DNA from: Kiritimatiellia bacterium
GTDB lineage: Bacteria > Verrucomicrobiota > Kiritimatiellia > RFP12 > UBA3636
DNA: 64,000 bases
Direction of reading: 5' to 3'
Assembly (NCBI GenBank): GCA_045589455.1
Contig: JAZNPC010000010.1
Span: 149-64,148 of the forward strand
Positions within the stretch are counted from its first letter, which is position 1; each line of letters begins with the position of its first letter. A program made the position numbers and the translations under genes. Below the pieces are notes generated by a model. It did not search any database and was not told the DNA's origin. It was given only the letters and a program-made list of their open reading frames with translations. This document shows positions 45,229-64,000 of the stretch, piece by piece.

Positions 45229-45244
45229 AATAAATCTCCTTTCC

Positions 45245-46603: not shown

Positions 46604-46604
46604 T

Positions 46605-47306
46605 TTACACCTCCTTTATTAAATCGCTATTAGCGATAAGTCCATCCTTGATATGAATTGTGGTTTTTGTATAATCACAAACCTCAGCATCATGTGTTAC
46701 AAGAATAATTGTAATATTATCCTCTTTATTGAGCTGCTGAAACATTCTTAAAATTTCATCGGTTGTAACAGAATCAAGATTTCCAGTTGGCTCATCAGCA
46801 AAAAGAATTTTTGGTCGATTAATCAGTGCTCGGGCTATTGCAACACGCTGCTGCTGTCCACCGGAAAGCTGAGCAGGGTGATGGTGCATTCGTTCCTTTA
46901 GACCAAGCCTTATTAATAGCTCTTCTGCCCATTCTTTGTTTTCCTTCTTGCTTGCTCTTGTTTTGCTATATTCGAGTGGCATTAGCACATTTTGGAGCGC
47001 AGATGTACGAGAAAGCAAATTGAAGTTTTGAAATACAAAACCAATTCTGCCAGAACGAAGCTCAGCACGCTCATTTGCGGAAATGTTAGCCACATTTTTA
47101 CCATCTAACCAATATTCGCCAGAGGTTGGGTTGTCAAGAAAACCAAGAATATTCATAAGAGTTGATTTTCCAGATCCAGAGGCACCCATAAGAGCAACTA
47201 GATCGCCCTGTGCAATGCTAAGGGAAATTCCTTTTAGAACAGGAACTTCTAGCCCACCATTAAGCTTATAGGTTTTTGTAAGGTTTTTTAACTCAATTAA
47301 ACTCAT
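46605..47306 (-). CDS. ABC transporter ATP-binding protein (MacB-type)
   Basis: Walker A (GASGSGKST), signature ([15 protein letters not shown]), Walker B ([11 protein letters not shown]). Confidence 0.92.
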
Positions 47307-47373
47307 ATTTTCCTCCTTTCCAAATTAATGCAAAGGCTTATTAATGATAGTAGTGTATATACTATTACTATTG

Positions 47374-48654
47374 TTAGCGGCGAGGAGAACTACCTGAGCC
47401 TCTCTTAGGCTTTGGCATATTTGGCATAAATGGATTCTTTGTTTCAGATTTACTATCATCTTCAGATATTACTTTTGATGATGTAATGATTTCCATTCCT
47501 TCAACAAGCTCAGGCGATTCAATCGCTGCCATTGTGCCATTATTGAGTATTACATTAACCTTAATTGGGCGGATGTTGCCATTTGCTTCTTTAATATGAA
47601 CAATTGCTTCATTTGGGGCTATATCTGGTAAAGGAGCTCCAGCAGGTCTCCATCTAATAGCTCTAGCAGGGATGATTAGAGCATCTTCTGCCTTTTCAAT
47701 TTCAAAAAGAACATTAGCTGTTAGATAAGGTATTAGTTCCATATTTGCATTGTCCACATCAATCTCAACGATGTAGGTAACAACATTGGAGGTTATTGTT
47801 GCATTGTAGCGTATACGTTTAACTGTTCCCTCATATACTTTTCCTGGGAATGAGTCAACAGAGAAAGAAACAGACATGCCTTCTTTTATGCTACCTACAT
47901 CTGCCTCATTTACAGCAGCCCAAATTTGCATTTTATCTAATTCTTTTGCTACTAAAAACATTGATGATACAGACATACTAGAGACAACGGTTTGTCCTAG
48001 GTTTACTCTACGATCAATAACAACACCATCAACGGGAGATGATATTGTGCAATAAGCAAGATTTCTTTCTGCCTTTTCTACATTTGCCCTAGCTTGCACC
48101 ACCTGAGCTTCAGCTTGAAGAATTTTGGCTTCAGCTGAAATTTTGTCAGCAACAGCAATTTTATAGCTTGCTTCATATGCATCATATGAGCTTTGTGAAA
48201 GAGCAGGGCCAACACCAATCTTTTGTGCTCTATTCCAATCCTTTTCTGCTTGCCATAAACGAGCCTCTGCTTGTTGAACAGCAGCCTGTGCAGCTGTAAC
48301 ATTTGCTAGTGCATTACTATATGAAGCTTGAGCAACTTCAAAATCTGCTAGATATGTCACATCATCAAGTTTGGCAAGAATCATTCCATTTGTAACAGTA
48401 GAACGATAATCTATTGTGTTGCCATTTGTATCCGTACCAAATGATATAATTTGTCCAGAAACTTGAGCACCCACGTCAATTAGTTCCTCTGGTTCTAGAG
48501 TGCCAGATGCAGAGATAGTTGTCGCTATTGTACCGCGAGATAGCTTCTCTGTTGTATAAACTGTTACTTCTTCGTTACCTTTGAGTAGTACAGGTAGCGT
48601 AATTGCTCCTATTATAGCAATCCCTAATATTATAAATATAACCTTCTTTTTCAT
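47374..48654 (-). CDS. HlyD/MacA-type periplasmic adaptor
   Basis: N-terminal TM anchor and a coiled-coil region (AAQAAVQQAEARLWQAEKDWNRAQ). It is the first gene of a four-gene minus-strand efflux operon that ends with the TolC-like gene. Confidence 0.85.
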   Translation of the reverse strand: MKKKVIFIILGIAIIGAITLPVLLKGNEEVTVYTTEKLSRGTIATTISASGTLEPEELIDVGAQVSGQIISFGTDTNGNTIDYRSTVTNGMILAKLDDVTYLADFEVAQASYSNALANVTAAQAAVQQAEARLWQAEKDWNRAQKIGVGPALSQSSYDAYEASYKIAVADKISAEAKILQAEAQVVQARANVEKAERNLAYCTISSPVDGVVIDRRVNLGQTVVSSMSVSSMFLVAKELDKMQIWAAVNEADVGSIKEGMSVSFSVDSFPGKVYEGTVKRIRYNATITSNVVTYIVEIDVDNANMELIPYLTANVLFEIEKAEDALIIPARAIRWRPAGAPLPDIAPNEAIVHIKEANGNIRPIKVNVILNNGTMAAIESPELVEGMEIITSSKVISEDDSKSETKNPFMPNMPKPKRGSGSSPRR

Positions 48655-48916: not shown

Positions 48917-50239
48917 ATGAAAAAGTTTTTACTCTTTGTTGTTTTATTAGCACTTTCAGTGAATGTATTTGCTGAAAATAAATTTAGTCCTGAAACAGTA
49001 GCCGCGCAAGAGGCTTTTATAAATGATGGTTTTGGTATTTTTATTCATTGGGGTATTTATGCAATTCATGGGAAGGGCGAGTGGTGGCTTAATAAATCAA
49101 AAATGCCTTTAGAGGAATATGAGGCTGTAGCATCTCAATTTAATCCAACAAATTTTGATGCAAATGCTTGGGCTGAAGCTTTTGCTGATGCTGGTGCACG
49201 CTATGTAACAATTACCTCACGCCACCATGATGGCTTTTCTATGTTCGCTACCACAAATACAACCTACGATATTGTGGATGCAACACCATATAAGCGCGAT
49301 CCGATGGCTGAGCTTGCTACAGCATGTAAGAAGCATAACTTGAAGCTAGGCTTCTATTATTCTCTCCTTGATTGGCGCCGAGAGGATTTTCCTCATTATA
49401 AAGGCCGCGGAGATTATGATTCATATTATGCCTTTATGAAGGGGCAGCTGGGAGAGCTCTTAACTAATTATGGACCAATTAATTGCATATGGTTTGATGG
49501 GCAATGGGCGCGCACTGACGCTGGCTTTGATTGGCGCTTGCCTGAGCTATTTGATTATGTTCGCTCAATTCAACCATCCTGCTTAGTTGGTAATAATTCA
49601 CATGTATCACTTCAGCCTGGTGAGGATTTCCAAATTTGGGAAATTAATTATCCAGGAGGTCACACAGGTCACATGAATGATAAGCAAACCATTGCAACAA
49701 ATGTACCTTTGGAATGCTGCTGGTCAATGACCTCTGATGCATGGGGATATCAGCCTAATGATTTGATGGAAAAGAATCCATCAAAGGAGCTCATTCGAAA
49801 GCTAGTGCGCACTCGTTTTCTTGGCGCAAATCTTCTACTAAATGTTGCTCCTGCTCCAGATGGATCCATTCCTGAACCCGCATTAGAGCGTCTCAAGGAT
49901 ATTGGAGAGTGGATGGATAAGTATGGCGATACCATTATAGATGCAAAGCCTGGTCATATTTATTTGGGAGGTCACAAGGAGTTCTCTAATGTAATTTCTA
50001 CTATCTCTGAGGATGGTAAAACAATACATTTGCATATTTTAACAGATGGCAAGAAGGATTTTGGATTATGGATCCCATTCCCAGATACAATTGTAGCAAT
50101 CACCAATCGCATGACAGGTGCTGAGCTACCATTTGTGCAGAAAATGCATCATTCAAAGCGCTACTTATCTCTACACCTAGATTTAGAGGCTGATGTGCCA
50201 GACACAATTCTCGACATCACTATCGACCCTTCAAACTAA
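48917..50239 (+). CDS. Alpha-L-fucosidase (GH29)
   Basis: Signal peptide (MKKFLLFVVLLALSVNVFA). GH29 core motifs are present (FGIFIHWGIYAI, ITSRHHDGFSMF, WFDGQW). The ATG at 48917 follows an AGGGGA RBS. Confidence 0.85.
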   Translation: MKKFLLFVVLLALSVNVFAENKFSPETVAAQEAFINDGFGIFIHWGIYAIHGKGEWWLNKSKMPLEEYEAVASQFNPTNFDANAWAEAFADAGARYVTITSRHHDGFSMFATTNTTYDIVDATPYKRDPMAELATACKKHNLKLGFYYSLLDWRREDFPHYKGRGDYDSYYAFMKGQLGELLTNYGPINCIWFDGQWARTDAGFDWRLPELFDYVRSIQPSCLVGNNSHVSLQPGEDFQIWEINYPGGHTGHMNDKQTIATNVPLECCWSMTSDAWGYQPNDLMEKNPSKELIRKLVRTRFLGANLLLNVAPAPDGSIPEPALERLKDIGEWMDKYGDTIIDAKPGHIYLGGHKEFSNVISTISEDGKTIHLHILTDGKKDFGLWIPFPDTIVAITNRMTGAELPFVQKMHHSKRYLSLHLDLEADVPDTILDITIDPSN

Positions 50240-50246
50240 TCTCTAG

Positions 50247-50510
50247 CAGCTAGCGTGATGCACGTGACGCCGAAGGGACGCAGAGACGCAGAGACGCAGA
50301 GCTAGCGTGATGCACGTGACGCCGAAGGGACGCAGAGACGCAGAGGGCGCGGAGGACGCGGGGCTGGTGTGATGGGTGTGGTGTGGGGCGCGAATGCGCA
50401 CATTCCCGCTTGTTGTTGCCTGGGTTTATTGCGAAATCTAACGAAGCAATAAGGCAACTGCCAAGCGCTAATGTGTATGACCCACCAAGGCTTTTGAGGT
50501 TGGGGGCGTG
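50247..50510. repeat. GC-rich ~260 bp intergenic repeat element, copy B. It has an internal duplication of the agctagcgtgatgcacgtgacgccgaagggacgcagagacgcagag segment
   Basis: Near-identical to 24990-25230. It lies immediately 3' of the fucosidase gene, at the transition to the AT-rich island. Confidence 0.85.
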
Positions 50511-51192: not shown

Positions 51193-51504
51193 TTGAATAG
51201 CAAGTTTTCTACAATAGAAAAGTTAAAGCCTTATTGGGACGATTTTAAAACAATTTTCTCTATGATTAAGGATTGCGTTACTGGAAAGTATAAAGAAACA
51301 CCATTTACAACAATTGCTAGCTTAGCTGGTGTATTAATTTATGTTCTTTCTCCAATTGATTTAATGGCTGATTTCATTCCACTTCTAGGATATGTGGATG
51401 ATGCTGCAATCTTGGGTCTTGCCATTAAACTAGCTGCTGCAGATATTGAAAAATATCGTCAGTGGAAAAAGACAATAGATGTAGAAGAAAAGCAGGTCAA
51501 CTAA
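51193..51504 (+). CDS. YkvA/DUF1232-family small membrane-associated protein. The frame is disrupted relative to an upstream ATG
   Basis: Carries the SPIDLMADFIPLLGYVDDAAILG motif characteristic of DUF1232. The annotated frame begins with TTG. A strong AGGAG RBS plus ATG at 51083 lies in the +1 frame, and the two frames would join if the A6 run at 51118-51123 were A7. Confidence 0.6.
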   Translation: MNSKFSTIEKLKPYWDDFKTIFSMIKDCVTGKYKETPFTTIASLAGVLIYVLSPIDLMADFIPLLGYVDDAAILGLAIKLAAADIEKYRQWKKTIDVEEKQVN

Positions 51505-51584
51505 TTTTCCCCAAAGAGCAAATCTAGCCTAGATTTCTTAGCTAGATTTGCTTTCCCCATAAATATATTCAAGAAATTGTAATT

Positions 51585-52172
51585 ATGAATAACATAGATA
51601 CTGGCCACGGAGCTGAAATTGCAGTAGGCTTAAGGAGTTGCTCTTCGATTATCCTTGTCCCTATTATTGCAATATGCTCAGGCATTATCATTGGTAAAGA
51701 GTACGGAACAGTTGTTGGTATTCTTGGTGGTATTGTTTGTAGCTCTATCTTTTTTAAGCTTTACCATAGGTTTATCGCTACGCAGATTAAAGGACTTACA
51801 GTACTAGACTGCTTGATTCCGTTTTTAGTTTCACTCGTTTCTGGTGTCATTTTTGCTCCAGTGTCACTTTTTTCAGCTAGTGTCTTTTCAATAGCCACAT
51901 GTATTTACTCTGGAGTACTATTGTCAGCAACACTATTCTTGTATAAGGCACAAAAAGTGTCTGTAGGATACCTTGTATTCCCATTTCTAGTCTTTATGTA
52001 TGAAATATTACCTATAGAGCTACCAACGGATCTAGATAACATATTTGCGCTTTCTGGTAATACAGTTCATCAGTTTATTGCATTAACTGCAGCTAAGATG
52101 AAAAAATCGCTCTCTAATGATTCTCCTACCTCAACAGATGACGAGACCATTATTGATGTCGACCCAGAGTAG
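51585..52172 (+). CDS. Polytopic membrane protein of unknown function
   Basis: 195 aa with 4-5 hydrophobic helices and an acidic C-terminal tail. It lies within the AT-rich island. Confidence 0.5.
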   Translation: MNNIDTGHGAEIAVGLRSCSSIILVPIIAICSGIIIGKEYGTVVGILGGIVCSSIFFKLYHRFIATQIKGLTVLDCLIPFLVSLVSGVIFAPVSLFSASVFSIATCIYSGVLLSATLFLYKAQKVSVGYLVFPFLVFMYEILPIELPTDLDNIFALSGNTVHQFIALTAAKMKKSLSNDSPTSTDDETIIDVDPE

Positions 52173-52248
52173 AAGCATATTTGGTAAATATATTTTATTT
52201 TGCATAGTATCATTTCTATGATGTAATAAAGAAATAAAGAAAGTTTTT

Positions 52249-53868
52249 ATGTGTTTATGGATTGTTGTTGGTTCTATTTTAGCATTTATTATAACAATAT
52301 GTATTATGTATTGGAATGTTGTTAAAATTTTATTAATTATAGTTGCTATAATTTATGTGCTATCTTTATTAGTCAGCTTAATTAAAAAAGTAATTAAAAA
52401 GGTTGAGCATGAAAATGAGTTGAAATTATTTGCTATAAATGAAGAGAATAAAACCGAAGAAAAAAAACAAAACATAAATTTCAAAAAGTTGTCAAATATA
52501 CTTTTTGTATCAACAATAGATTTAAGAGAGCATCCATTAAAAAACGAAAAGTATAAAAAACGTAAACAATATTTTGAAGTATTAATGTTTCTAATTAATA
52601 ATTCAGTGATTTCAGAAAAATTGAAAGATTTTACTGAAGGTCGTTTATCTATGTATTTTGATTGTTTGTTGCCTGAATTGATGTCTGAAAAGAGTGAAAT
52701 ATTAAATCAAAAAATAGAAGAAAAGGTTTTTATAAAAAAATTAATGCCTTTGTTTTATTTTGCTAATGTAAAGTATTCATATATATTTCTGTCAGATTTG
52801 TGTTTGTTTCTTCAAGAAGAATCGCTAATTTCATATGCAATAGTTGTATTAAAACGATATCTACCCAAATTTATGTGGGCAAAAATAGATAAAAAATATT
52901 ATAGAATTAAAAATTTATCAGTAATATCTGAAAAATATAAGCAGATTGCTGTTTTAATAGAGCAATATAAAACCAATATTGAATTTTTTGCTAGAAAGGA
53001 AAAAAGGGTAATTGTTACAGCTCTTGTTAGTGCAGGAAAATCAACACTAATTAATTCTTTAATTGGAGAAAGATTAACTAGAACAAAATCGGAAATTTGT
53101 ACAAGTAATTTGGCATACATATATAATAAAGCCTATAATGATGGGACCCTTCATTTTTATCAAAATGATAATAAAAAATCTTCTATAAACCAATGTGTGT
53201 GCTTTAATGCAAGTGAAGATGACATAAATACTTATGATATAAATGAAAAAATAAATGTTTCTGCATCGTTTTTAGGTGTTTACTCAAATTGGTCTAGAAT
53301 TTGTTTAATAGATACACCAGGGGTTGATGCTGCTATTAATGTGGAACATGGGGAGTGTACAAAAAAAGCTCTTTTAAATGAGTGTTATGATATGATTCTT
53401 TATGTGGTAAGTCCAAATCAAATAAGTACGGATTCACAAAAAGAATATTTAAAATGGATATTAAATAATCTTCCTAAAAAAAAGATAGTTTTCGTTATTA
53501 ATAAATTAGATACATTAAAACCTAAAGAAGATAGTATAGCTGATACAATATTTAATTTTTATAAAGATTTATGTGATATCGGTTTTAAGAATCCTACTAT
53601 TTGTCCAATATCTTCTTATTTTTCTTTCTTATTAAAGCAAAAAATATCAGGAAAAGACTTTTCCGAAGATGAAATTGACGATTTTAGGTTTTATAGTAGT
53701 AGGTTTTCTAAACCATTTTATAATTTATCAGGATATTATAACGAAGAATTAGAAGATATTAATCTTGAAATAAATGATTTATTGCAATTAAGCAAACGTT
53801 GTGGTTTATATGGTATTGAAAAAATAATAAATGAGGAAATAAATGAAAAAAATATTTATAAAATATAA
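52249..53868 (+). CDS. Bacterial dynamin-like GTPase 1, N-terminally membrane-anchored
   Basis: Two N-terminal TM helices. The dynamin-type G domain has G1 (ALVSAGKSTLINSLIG), G3 (LIDTPGVD) and G4 (FVINKLD) motifs. The 3' end overlaps the next gene. Confidence 0.8.
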   Translation: MCLWIVVGSILAFIITICIMYWNVVKILLIIVAIIYVLSLLVSLIKKVIKKVEHENELKLFAINEENKTEEKKQNINFKKLSNILFVSTIDLREHPLKNEKYKKRKQYFEVLMFLINNSVISEKLKDFTEGRLSMYFDCLLPELMSEKSEILNQKIEEKVFIKKLMPLFYFANVKYSYIFLSDLCLFLQEESLISYAIVVLKRYLPKFMWAKIDKKYYRIKNLSVISEKYKQIAVLIEQYKTNIEFFARKEKRVIVTALVSAGKSTLINSLIGERLTRTKSEICTSNLAYIYNKAYNDGTLHFYQNDNKKSSINQCVCFNASEDDINTYDINEKINVSASFLGVYSNWSRICLIDTPGVDAAINVEHGECTKKALLNECYDMILYVVSPNQISTDSQKEYLKWILNNLPKKKIVFVINKLDTLKPKEDSIADTIFNFYKDLCDIGFKNPTICPISSYFSFLLKQKISGKDFSEDEIDDFRFYSSRFSKPFYNLSGYYNEELEDINLEINDLLQLSKRCGLYGIEKIINEEINEKNIYKI

Positions 53869-56134
53869 CCCTTATTATTTGGAAACAAAATTTACTATAG
53901 ATGGTAAATCTCTTCCTACAAATAGTGAAATTAATGCACGTATTAATCAACCTGATGTGCGTCTACAAGAGTGGATAGAAGATTTACCTCAGCTTTTGAT
54001 TGATGAATGTAACGATAAGAAGTTTGACATTCAATTTCATGGTACTATATTAGATTACGAAGATGTTAAAGAGGTGTTTGAATGTGCTTCTAATGAAGAA
54101 AAGTTAGAGGTGAAGCTAGATAGAATACCTGCAAAAGAAACATCTGAAAAGGAATCTTTAATTGAAGATGTATTTAAAGAAATACAAAATGGACCTATTG
54201 ATGAACTACGTGATGAGAAAATAATTAATGCATTTAATAATGCAAAAAATAGTGAGTTTGAAATTTGTGTTGTAGCTACAATGAGTGCAGGTAAGTCTAC
54301 ATTGATAAATTCAATGCTTGGAGACAAAATGATGCCTTCAAGTCAAGAGGCTTGCACGGCCATTATTACTAGAATTAAAGATGTTGATTCAAATGTTAAT
54401 TGGCATGCTAAAGTATTTGGAAAAGATAACGAACTATTAGAATCAGTTGAAAGTCTTACATATGAAGAGATGGATAGATTTAATAGAGATTCTAAAGTAT
54501 CTTTAATACAAGCCGAAGGTAATATTCCTTTTGTAACCTCACAAAAAACTTCACTAGTTTTAATTGATACTCCTGGTCCAAATAATTCTAGAGATAAAGA
54601 ACATGAAAAAGTTCAAAGTAGATTTTTAGGTAAGTCGTCTAAAGCACTTGTCCTTTATATTATGGAAGGGACATATGGAAATAATGACGACAATGAATTG
54701 CTTCGTAAGGTTGCAGAGAGTATGAAGTCAGGCGGAAAGCAATCTAAAGACCGTTTCCTTTTTGTTATAAATAAGGTTGATGATCGTAAGCAAGAAGATA
54801 GTAAAATGGAGGATATGCTTTTAAGAATTAAGGACTATTTACAAATACATGGAGTTAAAAATCCAAATTTATATCCTGCAGCAGCTTTACCCGCACTTAA
54901 CATAAGATTAATGCAATCACATAATGACATTCTTGATGAAGACATTCTTGATGAAACAGAATTTAAAGTTAAAAAGTTAAATAGAAATGTTGATTTGCAT
55001 TTAGAAAAGTATTCTTCATTACCATTAAGCCTTAGAAGAAAAATTGATTCTGATTTAGAAATTGCTAAAAATAATGGAGATGTGTTTACACAGGCCTTAA
55101 TTCATACAGGAATAGTTTCTGTTGAGACGGCGATTCGTCAATATGTTGAAAAATATGCAAAAACAGCGAAAATTAAAAATATTGTAGATACTTTTAAAGG
55201 AAAATTAGAGGCTGTTTCTTATGAACAAGAAATGAAGAAAGAGATTGCTAAAAATGAAGAAGAGTGTGAAAAGATTACTGCACAAATAAGTTCGATAGAG
55301 AGTCAAATTAAAGACGGAAAAAATGCTCAAGTATTTAAAAAAGAAGTTTCAAAAGCATTGAAAAAAGTTAAAAAAGAAATAGAGGAAAAGATTAATCAAA
55401 ATGTAGAAGAGTTTCAAAATGAATTATTGGAAATAATTAACACATATGGGAATGATGATATTCCCGTTGAAAAAATCTCTTCAATTTTGTCTCAGGTAAG
55501 TAAAAAGGTAAAGTCAATCGAAGCAAATTTTCAAGTTGCTTTAGAGGGATCAATCAATACTGGATTAATATCAACAAGTAAATATCTTTTAGAAGAGTAT
55601 AAAACAAAACTATCATCGTTAACAAAAGATATAGATTTGAAAAACCTTTCAGGAGTTTTTATTGACCCATTGAAGTTAATGTCAGGTAGTGTTCCAAGTA
55701 TAGATAGCTTAAATATTGATGTAGAAGAAAAAGAAGAGGTAGTAGGTGAAGAATGGATTGAAAATACAAACAAAAAATGGTGGAAGTTTTGGACTTGGTT
55801 TGATGATCCTGGTCATTATATAACAAAGTATAAAACTGTAAAATATGTTTTAGGTAGCGAATTAGCTCAAGAAATGCTCGCACCTATAGAGGATACATTA
55901 ATTCAAAACGGAGAATCTGCATTAAAACAAGCGTTATATCAATCTCAAAGAATAGCGGAAAAATATGAGAAAGAGTTTGTTCGTTTAGATGATGTATTGA
56001 CAAAAAAATTGCGTGAGTTAAAACAAATTACTTCTGATAAAACAAACAAAGAGAAGTTGATTAACGATGCACAAGGAAAATTAAATTGGTTAGATAATAT
56101 TAAGAAAAGAGTTGATTCGATTCTTGAAATATAA
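53843..56134 (+). CDS. Bacterial dynamin-like GTPase 2 with a long helical stalk
   Basis: G1 (VATMSAGKSTLINSMLG), G3 (LIDTPGPN) and G4 (FVINKVDD). There is about 440 aa of charged, coiled-coil-like C-terminal sequence. The start overlaps the preceding DLP gene by 26 nt. Confidence 0.85.
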   Translation: MKKIFIKYNPYYLETKFTIDGKSLPTNSEINARINQPDVRLQEWIEDLPQLLIDECNDKKFDIQFHGTILDYEDVKEVFECASNEEKLEVKLDRIPAKETSEKESLIEDVFKEIQNGPIDELRDEKIINAFNNAKNSEFEICVVATMSAGKSTLINSMLGDKMMPSSQEACTAIITRIKDVDSNVNWHAKVFGKDNELLESVESLTYEEMDRFNRDSKVSLIQAEGNIPFVTSQKTSLVLIDTPGPNNSRDKEHEKVQSRFLGKSSKALVLYIMEGTYGNNDDNELLRKVAESMKSGGKQSKDRFLFVINKVDDRKQEDSKMEDMLLRIKDYLQIHGVKNPNLYPAAALPALNIRLMQSHNDILDEDILDETEFKVKKLNRNVDLHLEKYSSLPLSLRRKIDSDLEIAKNNGDVFTQALIHTGIVSVETAIRQYVEKYAKTAKIKNIVDTFKGKLEAVSYEQEMKKEIAKNEEECEKITAQISSIESQIKDGKNAQVFKKEVSKALKKVKKEIEEKINQNVEEFQNELLEIINTYGNDDIPVEKISSILSQVSKKVKSIEANFQVALEGSINTGLISTSKYLLEEYKTKLSSLTKDIDLKNLSGVFIDPLKLMSGSVPSIDSLNIDVEEKEEVVGEEWIENTNKKWWKFWTWFDDPGHYITKYKTVKYVLGSELAQEMLAPIEDTLIQNGESALKQALYQSQRIAEKYEKEFVRLDDVLTKKLRELKQITSDKTNKEKLINDAQGKLNWLDNIKKRVDSILEI

Positions 56135-56145
56135 AGGAGTATATT

Positions 56146-56664
56146 ATGCCTTTAACTAAAGCATTTTATGAAGCAATAAGAACAAAAAATGTTCGTCGAG
56201 TTAGAATAATGTTAAAAAATAGCCTTGTTGTTGATCCATCCTTTTCTGAATATAAATCAATGATTGATATTGCATCTAATTTAGAAGGATTGTTTGATGA
56301 GCATGATGGAAAGATTTTTAATAATGAAAAAAGTTTTTGGAACGATGAATATGTAAGTAAAGAAATGGCAAGACTTATTTCTAATTTTTCTAAGGAAAGA
56401 ATTGATCATTTAAAGGATGTTATTCGTTTCTTGAATCCGATGAATACTAATCAACAAAAGCATTATGGTAAATCCAAAAGGTTTTCACATCAAAAGAGAA
56501 AAATAATTACAGGAGCAGTTGTTGGTGCTACAATTGGTGCATTGTTAGGTAATGTAATAAATGACGAGAATGGAATTGTGTCAGTATTATTCGGAGTTGC
56601 AGGAGCTATAGCTGGTAGTGTTGTTGTGAATTGTATCTCTAATGAGGATAAAGGAAATGAGTGA
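56146..56664 (+). CDS. Small protein with a C-terminal glycine-zipper membrane segment
   Basis: 172 aa. The N-terminal ~120 aa form a soluble domain, followed by ITGAVVGATIGALLGNV…VLFGVAGAIAGSVVV (GxxxG repeats). There is an AGGAG RBS. Confidence 0.6.
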   Translation: MPLTKAFYEAIRTKNVRRVRIMLKNSLVVDPSFSEYKSMIDIASNLEGLFDEHDGKIFNNEKSFWNDEYVSKEMARLISNFSKERIDHLKDVIRFLNPMNTNQQKHYGKSKRFSHQKRKIITGAVVGATIGALLGNVINDENGIVSVLFGVAGAIAGSVVVNCISNEDKGNE

Positions 56665-59600
56665 TAGAGTTGTTTTGGTCAAAGACCATAATTTGAACAA
56701 TTCAATTTTGACGGATGATAATCTTATTGGACAAGGAGAGGGTAAATTTCCTTCGATAACTAAATTGGAGTCAAATTTAAAAGAATCAAGTAAGCTTGTA
56801 CAAGATATTGTTTTGAAAAATTATTTACACAAGTTAAAAGATTTAGAAGTTGTTCCTTTGCCCAATGAATTCAAAGATATAAATAAGCTTCGAATTTTTG
56901 AAATAAACGAAATGGTTTATCAAAAGGATGAATATTCAACCTATAAATTTGCTTCTGTTTTTAGCTCTTTACAAAGCTTAGATTGTGGAGTGTTTATTAT
57001 TGTCAATAGCAATGGAGAAAAAACAGATTTTTATATGGGAGTTCGTTCTAAAGATAATAATCGTACTACTAAATCTTTAAAAGATACTTTGAAAAATGCT
57101 TTGATTGGGCATTTCCCTGGTGTTAAAGTGAAAGATATGTTAGACCCAGAAGTAGAGGATTTTTTATCTGAAATTTCAAAAAATAATGTATCTTCAGTAT
57201 CATGTATTGCTAATAATAAAGATGAAGATTTTAAGAATAATGATAATTTTATCCAAGGTCTTGAAAAATTGGCTTTAGCAATGCAAGGGAAAAAATATAC
57301 TGCTATAGTGCTAGCAAACTCTATTAATAATAGTCAAATTTCGGATGTTCGGAGTGCTTATGAAACCATTTACACTCAGATATCTCCTTTTGCTAATATG
57401 CAACTTTCATATGGGACGAATACTGCTTTAAGTATTTCTGATGCTTTGTCTAAAGGAGCTACAACAGGAAGTTCTTATTCTAAAAATATAGGTACTTCTA
57501 GAGGAACTTCAACATCAAGTGGGGATACATATTCCGAATCAGCTTCAAAGCCTGACATTTTATCTTCTGGATTAAAGATTGCGGGGGCTGCTATTTTAGG
57601 AGCCGCTGCTATAGCTACTGCTATTCCTACAGGAGGGGTTAGTTTAGCAGTAGCTGGAGCAGCTATAGTGAATTCAATTCCAATGGTAACCAAAACCAAA
57701 GGTCGTTCTCACTCAAAAAACAAATCTCAAAGTGTAACATCTAACGAAGGTGAAACATTTGGAGAAAATTCTAGTACTTCTGAAAATGCTACCCATACTA
57801 TAGGAGAAACCATTGGAAAAACAGAAAATATGCAGTTAACAATGCAAAATAAAACATTGTTAAATACATTGGAGAAAATAGATTGTCAGTTACAACGTCT
57901 TAATGAGTGTGAAAGTTTAGGGATGTGGGAATGTGCTGCGTATTTTATGTCAGATAGTTTAGAAACTGTTGAGATGGCCGCAGGAACATATAAGGCTTTA
58001 ATGAAAGGCTCTAAATCAGGTGTTGAAACATCCGCAATTAATACTTGGGGATGGTATGAAAAAAATAAAATTCCAATATTATGTGAATATATTACAAATT
58101 TTATACACCCAATATTTGCCTACCCTACAGATGGAGAATTTATCCCAGTGACTCCAGCATCAATGGTAAGTAGTAATGAGCTTGCAATTCAAATGGGGTT
58201 GCCTAGGAAATCTGTATGTGGTTTTCCTGTTGTTGAACATGCTGAATTTGGAAAAGAGGTTGTTTCTAACTTAGACATTAAATCCTCAAGAACTATTCCT
58301 ATTGGGAATATTTTTTCTATGGGTTCAGAAACAAAAACACCAGTTAAATTAAGTATAGATTCATTGACAATGCATACATTTGTGACTGGTTCAACAGGTT
58401 CAGGTAAGAGTAATACATTATATGAGATTTTGTATCAATTGCATAATTTCAATAATGTCCCTTTTCTAGTAATAGAACCAGCAAAAGGTGAGTATAAAAA
58501 CATTTTTGGAAATTCTCATAATGTGTCAGTATATGGAACGAATGCAAAGAAAACTGAGGTCTTAAAAATAAACCCTTTTAGTTTCCCAGATGATATTCAT
58601 GTATTAGAGCATTTGGATAGACTAGTAGAAATATTTAATGTATGTTGGCCAATGTATGCTGCGATGCCCGCAATTTTGAAGGAAGCAATTGAAAAGGCAT
58701 ATATTTCTGTTGGTTGGGATTTGATTGATTCAATAAATGTCAATGGAAATATATTCCCAAATTTCACTGATGTTTTAGAACAAATTGAGATTGTTATTAA
58801 TGAGTCTCAATATTCAAAAGATTGTAAAGGAGATTATTCTGGTGCTTTAACAACGAGAATTCGCTCTATGACAACAGGTTTAAATCGTCTTATTTTTACA
58901 CAAAATGAAATTTCTAATTCTGATTTATTTGATAAAAGTGTTATTGTTGATTTAAGTAGAGTTGGATCTACAGAAGAGAAAGCTTTAATTATGGGAGTTC
59001 TTGTAATGAAGCTGAATGAATATAGAATGACATCAGGGAAGATAAATAGCTCATTGTCTCACATAACAGTTTTGGAAGAAGCACATAATTTGTTGAAGCG
59101 TACATCAACAGAACAAAGCTCAGAGAGTTCAAACCTTCTTGGTAAATCAGTAGAAATGCTCTCAAATTCTATCGCAGAAATGCGTACATATGGAGAGGGA
59201 TTTATTATTGCTGATCAAGCACCAGGTTTGTTAGACATGTCTGTAATACGAAATACAAATACAAAAATTATACTTCGTTTGCCAGAGAAAAGTGATAGAG
59301 AATTAGTTGGTTATGCTGCTTGTTTAAAGGATAATCAGTTAGATGAAATCTCTAAGCTGCATAGAGGCGTTGCGGTAATATATCAAAATGATTGGATAGA
59401 GCCAGTTCTTGTACAGATTAGAAAATGCAATTTAGAAGAGAATTCTTATTCATACAACCCGCCATCAAAACAAACATCAAAACCGAATGTCTTGAAGCAA
59501 TTGATAAATTTTTTAATATGTAATAATGTTAGGGAAAAATTAGATTTCTCTATTGCAGATATAGAGCAAGGAATAGATTTTTTAGCTTTGTCTTCGTCAA

Positions 59601-59950
59601 ATTTAAATTTTATTAAAAAACTACTTGGAGAATATAAAAAGTTTAATTCATTAGAAATATGGAGTAACCATAAATATAATTCACTTGCTTTAAATATAGT
59701 GAATATTCTTAATCTTAGAAATAAAATTGAGCAATTAGTTTTAAATTCATCTAATAACTCATCGTTAACACATGATTTAAAAGAAATTGTTTTAGATATA
59801 TTCCCAAAATCTTCTGAATCATTTATTATGACTTTAATACATTTGTTTATGAAGGACTTTAGTTTAAGTCGAGAGGAAAATGAACAACGTACTAAAATAT
59901 ATTTAAATTGGTTAAGTTATATTACAAAATATGGAGTAAAAAATGATTAA
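56657..59950 (+). CDS. Large fusion protein with an N-terminal unknown domain, a Gly/Ser/Thr-rich glycine-zipper hydrophobic segment, and a C-terminal HerA/FtsK-superfamily (DUF87-like) ATPase
   Basis: The ORF runs from 56642. The ATG at 56657 has an AAAGGA RBS. The hydrophobic Gly-zipper segment is LKIAGAAILGAAAIATAIPTGGVSLAVAGAAIV. Walker A (VTGSTGSGKSNTLYEIL) is encoded at about 58384-58410, and Walker B (ITVLEEAHNL) at about 59059-59085. The 3' end overlaps the next ORF by 8 nt. Confidence 0.8.
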   Translation: MSDRVVLVKDHNLNNSILTDDNLIGQGEGKFPSITKLESNLKESSKLVQDIVLKNYLHKLKDLEVVPLPNEFKDINKLRIFEINEMVYQKDEYSTYKFASVFSSLQSLDCGVFIIVNSNGEKTDFYMGVRSKDNNRTTKSLKDTLKNALIGHFPGVKVKDMLDPEVEDFLSEISKNNVSSVSCIANNKDEDFKNNDNFIQGLEKLALAMQGKKYTAIVLANSINNSQISDVRSAYETIYTQISPFANMQLSYGTNTALSISDALSKGATTGSSYSKNIGTSRGTSTSSGDTYSESASKPDILSSGLKIAGAAILGAAAIATAIPTGGVSLAVAGAAIVNSIPMVTKTKGRSHSKNKSQSVTSNEGETFGENSSTSENATHTIGETIGKTENMQLTMQNKTLLNTLEKIDCQLQRLNECESLGMWECAAYFMSDSLETVEMAAGTYKALMKGSKSGVETSAINTWGWYEKNKIPILCEYITNFIHPIFAYPTDGEFIPVTPASMVSSNELAIQMGLPRKSVCGFPVVEHAEFGKEVVSNLDIKSSRTIPIGNIFSMGSETKTPVKLSIDSLTMHTFVTGSTGSGKSNTLYEILYQLHNFNNVPFLVIEPAKGEYKNIFGNSHNVSVYGTNAKKTEVLKINPFSFPDDIHVLEHLDRLVEIFNVCWPMYAAMPAILKEAIEKAYISVGWDLIDSINVNGNIFPNFTDVLEQIEIVINESQYSKDCKGDYSGALTTRIRSMTTGLNRLIFTQNEISNSDLFDKSVIVDLSRVGSTEEKALIMGVLVMKLNEYRMTSGKINSSLSHITVLEEAHNLLKRTSTEQSSESSNLLGKSVEMLSNSIAEMRTYGEGFIIADQAPGLLDMSVIRNTNTKIILRLPEKSDRELVGYAACLKDNQLDEISKLHRGVAVIYQNDWIEPVLVQIRKCNLEENSYSYNPPSKQTSKPNVLKQLINFLICNNVREKLDFSIADIEQGIDFLALSSSNLNFIKKLLGEYKKFNSLEIWSNHKYNSLALNIVNILNLRNKIEQLVLNSSNNSSLTHDLKEIVLDIFPKSSESFIMTLIHLFMKDFSLSREENEQRTKIYLNWLSYITKYGVKND

Positions 59951-60896
59951 TAATTTTGACATTAGTAATATCAATAAATTTAACAATGAACTAAAGGATT
60001 GTAATTTATATAAGCAGATTGAAGGAGAAGATAAAAAAAAATCAGGAATAGAAAAATCTCTGGATAATGTTTGTACTCAAGAAACAAATCCAAGTGTTGA
60101 TGAACAAGGACATGTATATAGAAAAGAGAATGGAGATTTGCTCCCTAATAATAATTTCGTGATGGGTGAAAATACATTTAAAACAGATGATAATGGCAAA
60201 ATCTACGCTATAGATGGAAAACTTGTTCCAGAAAATAAGTATGAATTAAATTGTGCTTCGTATGAAACAGACGAATTGGGACGTATTAGAAAAGTAGTTG
60301 CTCAAGACTTAAAGATAACACCAGAAAACTTAAGAGATTCCACAGCACAAACTTTAGTTGGCGGCAAAGATAGATTGCTAGGAGATAATGGCGGTCATTT
60401 GGTTGCTCGTATACATGGGGGCGATGCTGGTATTGGAAATCAAGTAGCTGTTCGCGACGTAATTAATAAAGGTGATTGGAAGATTGATGAGAATACAATA
60501 AGTGATTTAATAAAAAAAGGTAAAAATGTCAGGACGGAAGCGGAAATTTTTTATGATGGTAATTCTGAGCGACCATCTAAAATAGAGATTTCAATCTATT
60601 CTAATGGAGAAAAAATAAGCGAAGCTGTTTATGATAACAATATTGGATCGAAGGATTTATTAGGATTGGAAAAACTTAAAGATATATTAAGCCCTAGTGA
60701 TTATCAAAACCTTTGCGATGAAATTTCTCAATTAGAAAAAAATGGAGATAAGGTTAGTATTACTTCTGTAACATTTAAGTCAGGAGAAGATCCTTCAATA
60801 GCAGTGAGAAATGAAACAACGGAAAAAACTTGTTATTGGCCATGGAATACACGCAATGAAGGAAAAACATTGAGTGATGTATTTCACAATTCATAA
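59943..60896 (+). CDS. Putative effector protein translationally coupled to the HerA-like ATPase. It carries a His/Gly/Asp-rich patch compatible with a metal-dependent (His-Me-finger-like) nuclease or hydrolase
   Basis: 317 aa with a GGAG RBS. The conserved-looking segment is KDRLLGDNGGHLVARIHGGDAGIGNQVAVRD. The functional call is speculative. Confidence 0.55.
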   Translation: MINNFDISNINKFNNELKDCNLYKQIEGEDKKKSGIEKSLDNVCTQETNPSVDEQGHVYRKENGDLLPNNNFVMGENTFKTDDNGKIYAIDGKLVPENKYELNCASYETDELGRIRKVVAQDLKITPENLRDSTAQTLVGGKDRLLGDNGGHLVARIHGGDAGIGNQVAVRDVINKGDWKIDENTISDLIKKGKNVRTEAEIFYDGNSERPSKIEISIYSNGEKISEAVYDNNIGSKDLLGLEKLKDILSPSDYQNLCDEISQLEKNGDKVSITSVTFKSGEDPSIAVRNETTEKTCYWPWNTRNEGKTLSDVFHNS

Positions 60897-60916
60897 ACAA
60901 CAGGTAGGTGTAAATA

Positions 60917-61309
60917 ATGGAAATAACTATAACCTATGAAGAGGTTTCTAATATAATAAAAACCAAATCTAATGTAAATGCGACATTTACAATGATTGAC
61001 AGCGAATCAATAAGTGTTAAAGTTAAACCTGGATTGCTTATTCCTGCGGTTAATATAACCTTAAAATTAGAAAAAGATGCTAAAGAGTATAAAATTCGTT
61101 ATGGCTCTGGTGTTGTGTCTCTTCTAGTAACAAAAATAGTAAATTTGTTCGTAAATGATAAACTACCTGAATTTGTCAGATTAGATACATCGAATAATAC
61201 TTTATCTTTTGATTCTACAATTAAGCATAATGGGATTGTTGTAGATATTAAGGATATTACATTTTTAGAAGAAAAAATTTCAATATCTTTATTTTTAAAA
61301 GATTTGTAA
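60917..61309 (+). CDS. Small hypothetical protein of 130 aa immediately downstream of the putative effector, a possible partner or immunity-like protein
   Basis: ORF with an AGGTG RBS. No motifs recognised. Confidence 0.5.
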   Translation: MEITITYEEVSNIIKTKSNVNATFTMIDSESISVKVKPGLLIPAVNITLKLEKDAKEYKIRYGSGVVSLLVTKIVNLFVNDKLPEFVRLDTSNNTLSFDSTIKHNGIVVDIKDITFLEEKISISLFLKDL

Positions 61310-61734
61310 AATTATCAGTCATCTCATATTGCTCAACCTAAATTCGGTGTTGCGCATCTGAGTTATTCACCAGATTATTCTAATGTCAAAATCATCACTT
61401 AACAAAATCAATGACCGGCTTTAATTATGCTACAATGAAGGGTTAAAAAAAGCAACAATCAAAGCATTGTCTCCTAAGTATTATGTATTTGTAGAAGTTT
61501 GATAGGTTTTTGGAATAAAAATCATTGTCTATTTTATTAGAGTTAGTATTGTGATTTGTAAGCATTTGTAGTTGTATTTTTGTTCCACCTTCCATAAGAT
61601 TTATTCGTCAAATGAGGAATAAACAAATGTAGGCGGGATGTGCTGCTAGGGTTCCGTGAAATCGCCAAGGCCGTATTTCGGCAATATGATGAATGACCTA
61701 ACACCATTCCGCTTACTTCTTTTAAGGAGATTAT

Positions 61735-62451
61735 ATGAACGAAAACATTTTGCAAGCAAAACTAGATAAATTGTTTGATAATTGGAAGGCAGCAATAGAT
61801 GCTTGTCCAGAAATTCCTGCAGAAATTAAGGAATGCTTCGTGCGCGATGGCTTCTATCCAGGCTACCTAAACCAAAAGTGTAAGGTGCTGTTTGTGGCTC
61901 GCGAATCACTTAGTGTTGAAGGAGATTATATAAAAGAGGTTTTTGATGCATATAAAAGTAAACGTGTTGGTGGCAAAAATATCAATCAGTATCAATTCCA
62001 TGCGTTAATGATGTATATAGCATATGCTCTAAATAATAATTGCTTTGATTGGAATAGCATTCCTTGGGCAGAAAAGCTCTGCGAGACATTTGGTACGCCT
62101 GGCGGACTTAGCTTCGCTTTTATGAATTTGTCTAAATTCAGTAATTGGTCGAAATCTAGTTGGCAAAGTAATTGGAATTTGATAAATTCTTCTCTAAATG
62201 TTAGTGGCAACGATTCTTTCATCAAACAGGAAATTGAATTGCTAGACCCAGATGTAATTATTACTATGAATTTAGATGGTAATTTAAGTTACTTGGGTGA
62301 AATGCGCAAGATTGTTAATACCACCGATATCAATAAATATGCTTACAAGATCAATGGTAAGGAAATACCTCTCTACGATATGTGGCATTTTTCTGCCCCA
62401 AGTAAGTCGCCAAGAGGAAATTATTTGGAGCCACTTAGTAAATTAGTTTAA
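61735..62451 (+). CDS. Hypothetical protein of 238 aa
   Basis: Strong AAGGAG RBS and AT-rich codon usage consistent with the island. It has a weak resemblance to a nucleotide-binding-fold N-terminus (KVLFVARES) and a WHFSAPS segment. No confident assignment is possible. Confidence 0.55.
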   Translation: MNENILQAKLDKLFDNWKAAIDACPEIPAEIKECFVRDGFYPGYLNQKCKVLFVARESLSVEGDYIKEVFDAYKSKRVGGKNINQYQFHALMMYIAYALNNNCFDWNSIPWAEKLCETFGTPGGLSFAFMNLSKFSNWSKSSWQSNWNLINSSLNVSGNDSFIKQEIELLDPDVIITMNLDGNLSYLGEMRKIVNTTDINKYAYKINGKEIPLYDMWHFSAPSKSPRGNYLEPLSKLV

Positions 62452-62465
62452 AAGGGAGAAAAAAC

Positions 62466-62666
62466 ATGGCAAAGCAACGTGTTGATTTGACAGATAAGAA
62501 GTGTGCTACCTGTCGTTGGTGGCAAGGTGATCGTGAGGTGATATTTTGGTCTCGTAAGCCATTTAAAGTCGAGTGCGATGCACAAGGTATGTGTCCATCC
62601 TGCAAGCAAAATAAGACCTATAGCTTTAGCTGCAGAAATTGGGTTCCATGGGAAAAGCTTCCATAA
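62466..62666 (+). CDS. Small zinc-ribbon protein with CxxC…CxxC
   Basis: 66 aa with KKCATCRWW…GMCPSCKQNK. A GGGAG RBS precedes it, 14 nt after the preceding gene. Confidence 0.5.
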   Translation: MAKQRVDLTDKKCATCRWWQGDREVIFWSRKPFKVECDAQGMCPSCKQNKTYSFSCRNWVPWEKLP

Positions 62667-62749
62667 TGCTACGTTTGACAGTTAATTACTGAATTTAGAT
62701 TAAAAATATAAATGAGGTTTTATAACTTAAAGTAAGGAAAAAAGTAATA

Positions 62750-64000
62750 TGAGAAGTTGTCTAACTGTGTTTTTAGGAATCGTTATTATTGGTGCTATTC
62801 TTCTGATATATTTCTTTTGGGAAGCAATAATAGCGTTATTATTAGCGTTGTTACAAATAGTTTTGACATTTATTGCAATAGTGGTGGGAATTGTGGTAAT
62901 GATTGCTGTAGTAAGTTATTTTAGGAAAAGAAAAATAAAAGAATTAGCACGCTTAGAGCGGGAAAGAAATGCTACATTAGAAAATAGAATTCGAGAAGAA
63001 GTTTATATACCGGTTCCTGAATATGCAGTTACATCTAACAATTATTATGAATGCTTACACATTCTTGAAGAAGCTGCAGATTATAAAAGAAGGATTGAAA
63101 ATGCTTCATCAAAGCTTGAAAAGAGCCAATTAAAAAATGAGTTGTCTAATTTCAGGCTTAAATCATTCTATGTTATTTCTCTACGTCATGAAGTTGATGA
63201 AGAAAAATGGGCGTCTTATGAAACAAAGATTAATAATATTTTATCTAAAAATGGTGATTGGAATTTGCTAAGAATAGAAGATAATGAAAAATCATTAGTT
63301 ACTGGAAAATACGAAGCTAAAGTAAAAAATAATTTAGGTAATATAACATTGAGGCTTGAGGATAATAATATCGATGATGTCATTAAAAGAGTTGATTTGA
63401 TTAAAGATTTTGATACATCAGGTATTTTTACAACGCACAGTTTGACTAAGCTTAATGATAAAACAGAACAAATGACTAAATGTTATGATTCTATTGAGAA
63501 GAGGTATAAAGAGCTATCGGATGTGGGTGAAATAACTAATAAGATTTTGGTAGAAGCTCGTGGTGCTGCATATCGGAATATTTTCTTAGGTGTAGAACTT
63601 TTGAATTATATTAGAGATAATTCTGGAGGAACGGGGCTAAAGGTTCAACATGATTCGGTTGATATGCAAGAAATTAATCTTTCAACAGATATTCCATTAA
63701 GTAGTTTGAATATTGATTTTGGAGAAGTTTTGAAAGTGGGTTTGTTTAACAAAGAAGGCACTAAAGCTATTTCAAGAATTTTGAAAAATCCTAAGAGTAT
63801 TGGTTACAATAGTGCTTTAATTGGCATTTCTGTTGCAAAAGAACTTTTAAAAGCACGTAATAAAGCAATTCAGGCAAATATAAAACAACAAAAGGAACTG
63901 ATAAAATGTATTGACGATGCTTGTAAAAATTATACAAATACTCGTGCTCAAATGTTTAGAGCAATTGAAATAGTTAAAGCGATTGTTCATTCAAATGCAG
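62750..64000 (+). CDS. N-terminally membrane-anchored protein of unknown function (partial; it continues beyond the window)
   Basis: ATG at 62750 after an AAGGA RBS. Two N-terminal TM helices (LTVFLGIVIIGAILLIYFFWEAIIALLLALLQIVLTFIAIVVGIVVMIAVV), then more than 350 aa of charged sequence. There is no stop before the window end. Confidence 0.6.

Follow-up and report, generated by a model that had tools for sequence, protein, structure and literature searches.

An operon of two dynamin-like GTPases, a VirB4-like/HerA-clade ATPase and a leader-tagged nuclease, with a possible role in membrane-associated defense

Gene organization of the operon

The stretch of DNA analyzed here, which we call the window, is 64,000 nucleotides (nt) of contig JAZNPC010000010.1 from a Kiritimatiellia bacterium (GenBank assembly GCA_045589455.1). 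It encodes a large ATPase (56657-59950, plus strand, 1097 amino acids (aa)) that belongs to an operon of six to seven genes in the order WYL regulator (in some loci), dynamin-like GTPase, dynamin-like GTPase, small Gly-zipper protein, ATPase, toxin and immunity gene. Most of the information is carried by the neighbors of the ATPase, namely the two dynamins, the Gly-zipper protein, and the leader-tagged nuclease and immunity gene that come after it. Our leading reading, which we hold tentatively, is that the ATPase serves as motor in a membrane-associated defense operon, self-contained and horizontally mobile, that is directed against phage or plasmid DNA.

The operon lies on the plus strand of the window. 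Its first gene, at 52249-53868, encodes a dynamin-like GTPase of 539 aa when read as the longest open reading frame (ORF), with homologues of ~435 aa; it matches Pfam Dynamin_N at E 8e-16 and, partially, the PADLOC LeoA model at E 1e-13, and it has the motifs AxxxxGKS, DTPG and NKLD. Over its last 26 nt this gene overlaps that for the second dynamin-like GTPase (763 aa, 53843-56134, Pfam Dynamin_N E 1e-16), in which a Trp-rich patch, KKWWKFWTWF (55772-55801), may be a membrane paddle. After a gap of 11 nt comes the small Gly-zipper protein (172 aa, 56146-56664), with a helical N-terminal part and a C-terminal two-helix Gly-zipper hairpin (56503-56628) and with sub-threshold matches to the Glycine zipper 2TM, SLATT_1 and YiaD/TagQ Gly-zipper models. 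This gene overlaps the start of the ATPase gene by 8 nt, the ATPase stop overlaps the start of the toxin gene (59943-60896, 317 aa) by 8 nt, and the toxin is separated by 20 nt from an ORF of 130 aa (60917-61309), which on position only is the candidate immunity gene.

The same order was found in 80 loci from species-representative genomes, in metagenome contigs, and also in a 38%-identical relative that has no hydrophobic tip (see below). Across 81 loci, a counterpart of the first dynamin stands upstream of the ATPase in 56, counterparts of the second (33-58% identical, always just upstream) are found in 67, and the Gly-zipper protein has a counterpart between the second dynamin and the ATPase in 60; these partners are absent mainly at contig ends.

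In the window, the longest ORF of the first dynamin includes an N-terminal extension of ~82 residues (52249-52494) with two hydrophobic helices, which the ~435-aa homologues do not have, their alignment beginning at residue 83. Either the extension is a membrane anchor peculiar to the window, or translation truly starts further in, at a non-ATG codon. We also noted a subfamily of ~40%-identical ATPases (~1000 aa; loci L070-L083; Bacillus, Periweissella, Synergistaceae, Lachnospiraceae) that has a single dynamin of ~550 aa, no detected Gly-zipper protein, and larger effectors of 280-550 aa with a longer, distinct leader (..NFHKNYVSKI.P.DGKFGD..KFVAEM.PGV.EYNA).

The ATPase core and start site

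The ATPase is encoded by an uninterrupted ORF that in its longest frame extends from 56642 to 59950 on the plus strand (1102 aa). We placed the start at 56657 because all 14 of the aligned full-length homologues begin at the second methionine (MSD...) and because the NCBI gene call for the same sequence is also 1097 aa long; residue positions follow the 1097-aa numbering. The original prediction, made from the letters of this DNA alone, had already set the gene at 56657-59950, a start that the homologues and the gene call confirm, and every motif it listed is present. With more than 1,500 homologues, a chance ORF can be rejected, and the mean column identity of the homologue alignment is 74%.

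The C-terminal half contains a Walker A motif, GSTGSGKS (residues 578-585, 58388-58411), and a Walker B motif, VLEEAHNL (residues 805-812, 59069-59092), in an FtsK-HerA-type core (58274-59461) matched by Pfam DUF87, PADLOC HerA models and PDB HerA chains. The Pfam DUF87/HerA central domain scores 55.8 bits against a gathering score of 23.2 (E 9e-15), and 14 PADLOC HerA-type models match residues 545-940 (E 8e-20), aligning only from model position ~140 onward. When PDB sequences were searched with a profile of the ATPase family, this half matched HerA proteins only (8wiv, 4d2i, 9x1l, 9c1m and 8xau, E 1e-13 to 1e-9), with no VirB4 chain at E <= 10, and the Pfam families VirB4, CagE and TraC gave no match to the ATPase at E <= 0.01. 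Based on these searches, we assign the C-terminal half to the P-loop ATPases of the FtsK-HerA superfamily, nearest to HerA by sequence and, among HerA proteins, to those of anti-phage systems, which bears out the HerA/FtsK-type ATPase proposed originally. An identity as an ABC or STAND ATPase can be rejected, the motifs and models being wrong for either. The NCBIfam HerA models all fall far under their cut-offs (HerA_antiphage 60 of 800 bits, HerA_Thermprot 50 of 800, helicase_HerA 43 of 970), and the match to NCBIfam CedD, an archaeal DNA-translocating ATPase, is weak (89 bits, cut-off 600).

After the core, residues 940-1097 (59474-59947) form a predicted helical domain, with a predicted local distance difference test (pLDDT) score of 67-86 even in a shallow full-length AlphaFold model. 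It is the least conserved part of the ATPase in the homologue alignment and is without a family match.

The N-terminal domain and its insertion

The full-length model, built with 15 close homologues, was poor (mean pLDDT 46), and it was replaced by a good one for residues 1-540, built on an alignment of 84 sequences (predicted template modeling score 0.72). Its pLDDT exceeds 90 at residues 30-255 (56744-57421) and 387-537 (57815-58267), the two halves of one domain, with the second half packed against the first. The top six Foldseek matches in the PDB are TrwK/VirB4 chains. A HAS-barrel was not found; the confident model, covering residues 30-537, shows an alpha/beta unit matching the VirB4 N-domain. 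As modeled, the ATPase has a VirB4-like plan, N-domain followed by ATPase, with a HerA-clade motor and no HAS-barrel. A novel N-terminal domain of ~280 aa had been predicted here, and a domain is indeed present, but that segment covers just the opening half of a fold, which continues on the far side of an insertion and is VirB4-like. With Foldseek (E 3e-8 to 4e-4), proteins structurally like the N-terminal half were also found in the Bacillus phages JL, G (gp155, gp156) and Slash (BFVD S5MSQ0, G3MBM2, G3MBM1, U5Q0H6), so that relatives of this domain are carried by some phages.

The insertion (residues 256-386, 57422-57814) comes out between two neighboring N-domain strands and is disordered, with low pLDDT, in the monomer model. 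It is made up of two Ser/Thr-rich arms and a Gly/Ala hydrophobic tip, LKIAGAAILGAAAIATAIPTGGVSLAVAGAAIV (residues 306-338, 57572-57670), which is the sole strongly hydrophobic stretch of the ATPase besides one buried strand (Kyte-Doolittle 19-residue mean 1.5-1.8). The 50-residue blocks on its two sides contain 21 and 17 Ser/Thr residues. Such tracts had been described as low complexity flanking a Gly/Ala membrane segment; both are present in the window protein, but the tracts are not plain low complexity and the tip is found in only about half of the diverse members of the wider family by hydropathy (33 of 83 by a stricter criterion). In 88% of these 83 members, Ser, Thr, Gly and Asn alternate with a period of 2, the lag-2 value exceeding that of shuffles by z > 2. 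The mean autocorrelation at lags 1-4 is -0.28, +0.32, -0.27 and +0.33, and in the window ATPase the lag-2 value is +0.45 (z 5.7). The arms average 54 and 51 residues (range 20-89) with the tip central, and their lengths co-vary (r 0.70, n=33). These patterns suggest that the insertion is a long beta-hairpin of two strands, hydrophobic at its tip, that may not fold outside an oligomer.

The toxin, its leader and the immunity gene

The toxin of the window consists of a leader (residues ~1-35) and an Endonuclea_NS_2 nuclease domain (residues 99-220, Pfam E 1e-20). The ~35-residue leader is conserved (MIGNFKDVTE..NRFADSPLGK), that of the window aligning with the leaders of 24 other loci, and behind it come a linker that is variable and often acidic and then differing C-terminal domains, from at least five toxin families. 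In 61 non-redundant loci the C-terminal domains are WHH/Colicin-DNase (29), Endonuclea_NS_2 (11), LHH (4), NERD (2) and SprT-like (2). Among the 48 loci with a recognized enzymatic effector domain, 46 have WHH, LHH, Colicin-DNase, EndoNS or NERD nucleases and two have SprT-like proteases, while no RNase, deaminase, NADase or lipid-targeting toxin was detected among the effectors of the sampled loci. The gene after the toxin in other loci encodes DUF6985 (22), SUKH/SMI1-KNR4 (9), DUF7832 (6) or a YezG-like immunity protein (3), and immunity clusters co-vary with toxin type. This is the layout of polymorphic toxins: a conserved N-terminal part, variable C-terminal toxin domains and a co-varying downstream immunity gene.

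Relative to the 299-aa Endonuclea_NS_2 toxins found elsewhere, the window toxin has ~95 additional residues at its C-terminus, and the 130-aa gene downstream of it is unrelated to the 92-aa partner of those toxins. The 130-aa protein is a singleton with no family match and could represent a new kind of immunity protein.

Three leader types track three subfamilies of the ATPase, and the WHH toxin type, with its DUF6985-type partner, occurs behind all three. From this pattern we argue that the leader contacts the machine. We scanned metagenomes for the leader motif R[FL]A[DE]SPLGK, using a narrower leader alignment since the first was too diverse, and obtained 30 loci, 27 of them assessable. In 26 of the 27, the leader gene begins directly at the ATPase stop. 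The exception is a truncated leader fragment, KDVAETLRNRFAESPLGKQLEGMDFDNIDN (L106, 4325-4414), which is next to a ParB-like gene and lacks both a start codon and an ATPase upstream. It has the appearance of what a deletion left of the operon, on a contig that is plasmid-like. No orphan or spare toxin or immunity cassettes were found in the two nearest downstream genes of the sampled loci (109 proteins), and the toxins showed no signal peptide or known trafficking domain.

Family extent and hosts

The best 120 full-length homologues of the ATPase are 60-68% identical to it and come from Oscillospiraceae, Lachnospiraceae, Clostridium, Turicibacter and Paenibacillus. A search with residues 1-270 alone against 1.84 billion cluster representatives gave at least 776 clusters at 50% identity, 483 of them at E <= 1e-10, mostly from Bacillota. 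In every listed full-length protein of ~1000-1200 aa, this domain is N-terminal or nearly so, with one repeat-rich exception of 1766 aa. The fusion that the original prediction held to be unusual is thus, as far as homologue searches tell, the defining architecture of a large family and not a one-off. The class of the ATPase stood, as did its difference from the stand-alone ~550-aa HerA proteins of defense systems, while the idea of a singular fusion of an unknown N-domain to HerA did not.

Most hosts of the operon are monoderm Bacillota of dense gut communities, and intact copies are also found in Veillonella, Megamonas, Treponema and E. coli. Databases label the ATPase just 'ATP-binding protein' or 'DUF87 domain-containing protein', and against PADLOC 2023 the family matches only generic HerA and mad8/mad3 models and no dedicated system model. 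A full-text literature search found no description of a dynamin-ATPase-nuclease operon; the pumps mentioned in two Aravind-group papers, on polymorphic toxins and on SUKH, are only those of the YueA type in type VII secretion systems (T7SS), and a 2020 paper on conflict systems has no mention of dynamin or VirB4.

Genomic surroundings and mobility

In about 27 of 53 loci the upstream neighbor of the operon is a WYL (HTH-WYL-WCX) regulator, a kind of repressor that controls many defense systems (PMC13622015). The window has none, and in this position (51193-52172) it encodes a DUF1232 protein of 103 aa and a multi-pass membrane protein of 195 aa without a family match. Genes flanking the operon include SngB/SngC (Shango), AbiLi (AbiL), MkoA (Mokosh), AriA (PARIS) and BrxHI (BREX helicase), as well as mad3/mad8 (MADS), LmuB (Lamassu), a DRT and several PDC candidates (PADLOC), with E values down to 1e-221.

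The operon of the window lies in an island of low GC content (52000-64000, 0.23-0.32, compared with ~0.40 in 1-52000), and the window ends inside this island. The closest relatives of the ATPase (67%) come from Clostridia, which suggests a recent cross-phylum transfer. The host of the window is diderm, as a NodT-family outer-membrane efflux factor and MacB-/RND-adaptor-type (MacAB) genes are encoded at 43822-48654, 4-8 kb upstream. Scans of the window for tRNAs, Rfam families, promoters and terminators gave nothing usable for the borders of the island or the operon. Directly after a fucosidase-like gene there is a patch of ~300 bp (50200-50500) with a GC content of 0.56, containing a ~54-bp direct repeat, agctagcgtgatgcacgtgacgccgaagggacgcagagacgcagag (50247-50345), and 8-bp GACGCAGA repeats, with no match to an Rfam family or tRNA. 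Downstream of the operon (61735-64000), on the same strand and also of low GC, are genes for a 238-aa protein, a 66-aa Cys-rich protein (CxxC) and a protein that begins with a membrane segment, has a long coiled-coil-like region and extends beyond the window; these may be another system in the same island.

Complete operons were found on conjugative plasmids, namely on dairy plasmids of Lactococcus cremoris and on one plasmid of enterotoxigenic E. coli (ETEC). The copy on pF27B of L. cremoris (L119) has a WYL gene, with an Abi gene and an Fst toxin nearby. The copy on pTW10590_133 of E. coli TW10590 (L120) has an HNH/EndoVII nuclease with an SMI1/KNR4 protein, and an IS66 element abuts its first dynamin gene. 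The E. coli copy occurs in one of 5,426 complete E. coli genomes and is without DNA-level relatives, and a link to the LeoABC locus of ETEC H10407 was not supported.

The plasmids and low-GC islands, together with the adjacent and co-varying genes for a toxin and its neutralizer, would fit an addiction module, in which nuclease and immunity protein act as a toxin-antitoxin pair stabilizing a mobile element and the large proteins are accessory. However, such a module has no need for four large and highly conserved proteins whose translation is coupled to that of the toxin, and the co-variation of leader and ATPase is left unexplained; we regard this explanation as improbable.

Comparison with known systems

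The operon resembles the HerA-effector systems (Sir2-HerA, DUF4297-HerA) and archaeal HerA-NurA, with which it shares a HerA-clade core with GSTGSGKS and hhhhEEAH motifs, an adjacent nuclease effector and defense-island surroundings. In contrast to those systems, the ATPase has a VirB4-type N-domain and a 130-residue insertion in place of the HAS-barrel and is twice as long, its effector is a small, swappable, leader-attached DNase with an immunity protein, and two dynamins and a membrane protein are obligatory partners.

With VirB4/TrwK of the type IV secretion system (T4SS), the window ATPase shares the fold of the N-terminal domain, but the identity is 8%, no VirB4/CagE/TraC sequence model matches, and VirB4 has neither the Ser/Thr hairpin insertion nor the C-terminal helical domain. 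A high-scoring match over the full length to a characterized TraC or VirB4, which would have refuted the original prediction, was not found. Across the loci examined, no conserved T4SS genes (VirB3, VirB6, VirB8, coupling protein, relaxase, pilin) were present in the operon, and with both the partner genes and the sequence match absent we rejected an identity as a conjugative VirB4. A looser version of this idea, a reduced conjugation-like or DNA-uptake/export apparatus that relies on a VirB4-like ATPase to carry DNA across the membrane and on the nuclease to process this DNA, could draw on the VirB4-like N-domain, the weak CedD match, the small two-helix membrane partner, which recalls VirB3, and a MobA/MobL gene a few kb away in one locus. 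The same missing components and sequence models weigh against it, and non-specific DNase and immunity pairs occur in no known DNA-transfer system. We consider it very improbable, the least probable of the readings discussed here.

Eleos (LeoA/LeoBC) likewise has two adjacent dynamin-like GTPases in defense islands, and the window dynamins have weak LeoA/LeoBC matches; here, in contrast to the two genes alone of Eleos, the dynamin pair is always followed by four coupled genes. A two-gene dynamin operon has been shown experimentally to be a defense system in which both P-loops are needed (bioRxiv 10.1101/2022.05.11.491447), and a related operon with two dynamins protects Bacillus from jumbo phages.

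The T7SS with its LXG/WXG toxins also has a membrane-anchored ATPase of the FtsK-HerA superfamily, and the N-domain shows similarity to EccE. Its toxins, too, have a conserved N-terminal targeting part, variable nuclease ends, and SUKH or YezG immunity genes downstream. Unlike the T7SS, the operon encodes one ATPase domain, not three, and no FHA, WXG100/LXG proteins or Ess/Ecc membrane partners, and its leader is a peptide of ~35 residues where the T7SS counterpart is a helical domain of ~200 residues. No operon protein had a WXG or LXG match, and an identity as the T7SS ATPase EssC was rejected on this ground and on that of the single ATPase domain.

Finally, the NCBIfam 'serine-rich protein' family NF033849 (ser_rich_anae_1) has a similar length (~1160 residues), with a serine-rich region followed by a related ATPase, and it matches residues 410-928; at 84 bits against a cut-off of 650, however, the window ATPase is a distant relative and not a member. 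The operon thus borrows one feature each from HerA-effector systems, the T4SS VirB4, Eleos and the T7SS, and does not qualify for membership of any.

Proposed function

Starting from what was observed, namely the gene content, the folds of the ATPase, the modularity of the effectors and the genomic context, we infer every step of the following mechanism. The ATPase would form a ring, as its HerA and VirB4 relatives do, and the hydrophobic-tipped Ser/Thr hairpins, together with the hairpin of the Gly-zipper protein, would hold this ring at the cytoplasmic membrane. The DNase would dock on the ATPase by its ~35-residue leader and a flexible, often acidic linker, and would be silenced by its cognate immunity protein; the variable C-terminal helical domain of the ATPase may be what receives the leader. 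The two dynamin-like GTPases would detect or remodel membrane disturbed by an invading element, whereupon ATP hydrolysis would either pull the nuclease from the immunity complex or supply it with DNA, in the way that HerA serves NurA. What is cut at the membrane would be foreign DNA or, in an abortive version, all DNA. Where a WYL regulator is present, it would hold expression low until infection-derived signals appear.

We favor defense because of the WYL control, the defense-island neighbors, the precedent of a dynamin pair and the HerA-type motor, and also because the effectors are centered on DNA, there is one effector per machine, and the operon has spread across envelope types. Several points weigh against it. 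The evidence from defense islands is qualitative and comes without a background rate, and the window dynamins match the Eleos models over the GTPase core only (LeoA residues 347-427, LeoBC E 1e-3 to 2e-6), weakly and partially. WYL regulators also respond to DNA damage, which is a classic inducer of bacteriocins. A SUKH, YezG or DUF6985 immunity gene and a leader on a swappable toxin are the signature of secreted polymorphic toxins and not of known defense effectors. By structure comparison, the N-terminal half of the ATPase resembles VirB4 and EccE, parts of two secretion machines, and the insertion has the look of a conduit-forming or membrane-inserting element. Taken as a whole, the anatomy (leader-tagged toxin with immunity, VirB4/EccE-like folds, a hairpin with a membrane-seeking tip and a Gly-zipper partner) points towards a protein translocon for polymorphic toxins.

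The main rival is accordingly an ATP-driven machine for the export or delivery of polymorphic toxins in bacterial competition, which we find doubtful but worth serious consideration. Here a ring of the ATPase would recognize the leader, unfold the toxin off its immunity protein and thread it through a channel formed by the Ser/Thr hairpins, their Gly/Ala tips and the Gly-zipper protein, while the dynamins would shape or reseal the membrane and the immunity gene would protect siblings. Beyond the polymorphic toxin and immunity layout itself, with the WHH toxin behind three leaders that each track one ATPase subfamily, this explanation can cite the SUKH and YezG families, which belong to the immunity proteins of secreted toxins (PMC3113570; PMC7033585). 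It can also cite the matches of the N-terminal half to VirB4 and EccE, both from secretion systems driven by FtsK-HerA-type ATPases, the two-armed, symmetric, period-2, hydrophobic-tipped insertion, and the order of N-terminal leader and disordered acidic linker, which suits a threading translocase. The hosts, mostly monoderm members of dense gut communities, fit bacterial competition, and LeoABC dynamins have been linked to toxin release via vesicles (PMC4159319). On the other hand, the toxins, at ~190 aa, are small and lack any domain for receptor binding or entry, the effector repertoire is limited to DNA-directed enzymes, and neither orphan leader-toxins nor spare cassette arrays were seen in the loci sampled. 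The operon is intact in diderms, where one membrane crossing would not free the toxin, half of the family has no hydrophobic tip, and the WYL regulators and defense-island neighbors fit defense better.

A more specific possibility, on balance unlikely though not far-fetched, is that the ATPase ring and six Ser/Thr beta-hairpins form a motor with a built-in conduit, a beta-barrel stalk with a Gly/Ala membrane tip, and that this machine threads the leader-tagged DNase, freed of its immunity protein, across a bilayer. The DNase could end up outside the cell, making this a new polymorphic-toxin secretion system, or in a membrane compartment sheltering invading phage DNA, whose membrane the dynamins would find or reshape. 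If true, this would be a new kind of protein translocon, in which a single polypeptide combines an N-domain like that of VirB4, a motor like that of HerA and a stem like that of a pore toxin.

Implications

Returning to membrane-associated defense as the preferred reading, the operon unites modules that have been studied apart, namely bacterial dynamins, HerA-type motors with nuclease effectors, and polymorphic toxin and immunity cassettes, and it supplies a concrete set of partners for asking what role bacterial dynamins have in immunity. The copies in E. coli and Lactococcus make the ideas of defense and export directly testable. If the operon is a defense system, DNases that are gated by an immunity protein and tethered by a leader could act as defense effectors; if it serves export, Gram-positive gut bacteria would have a new route of secretion.

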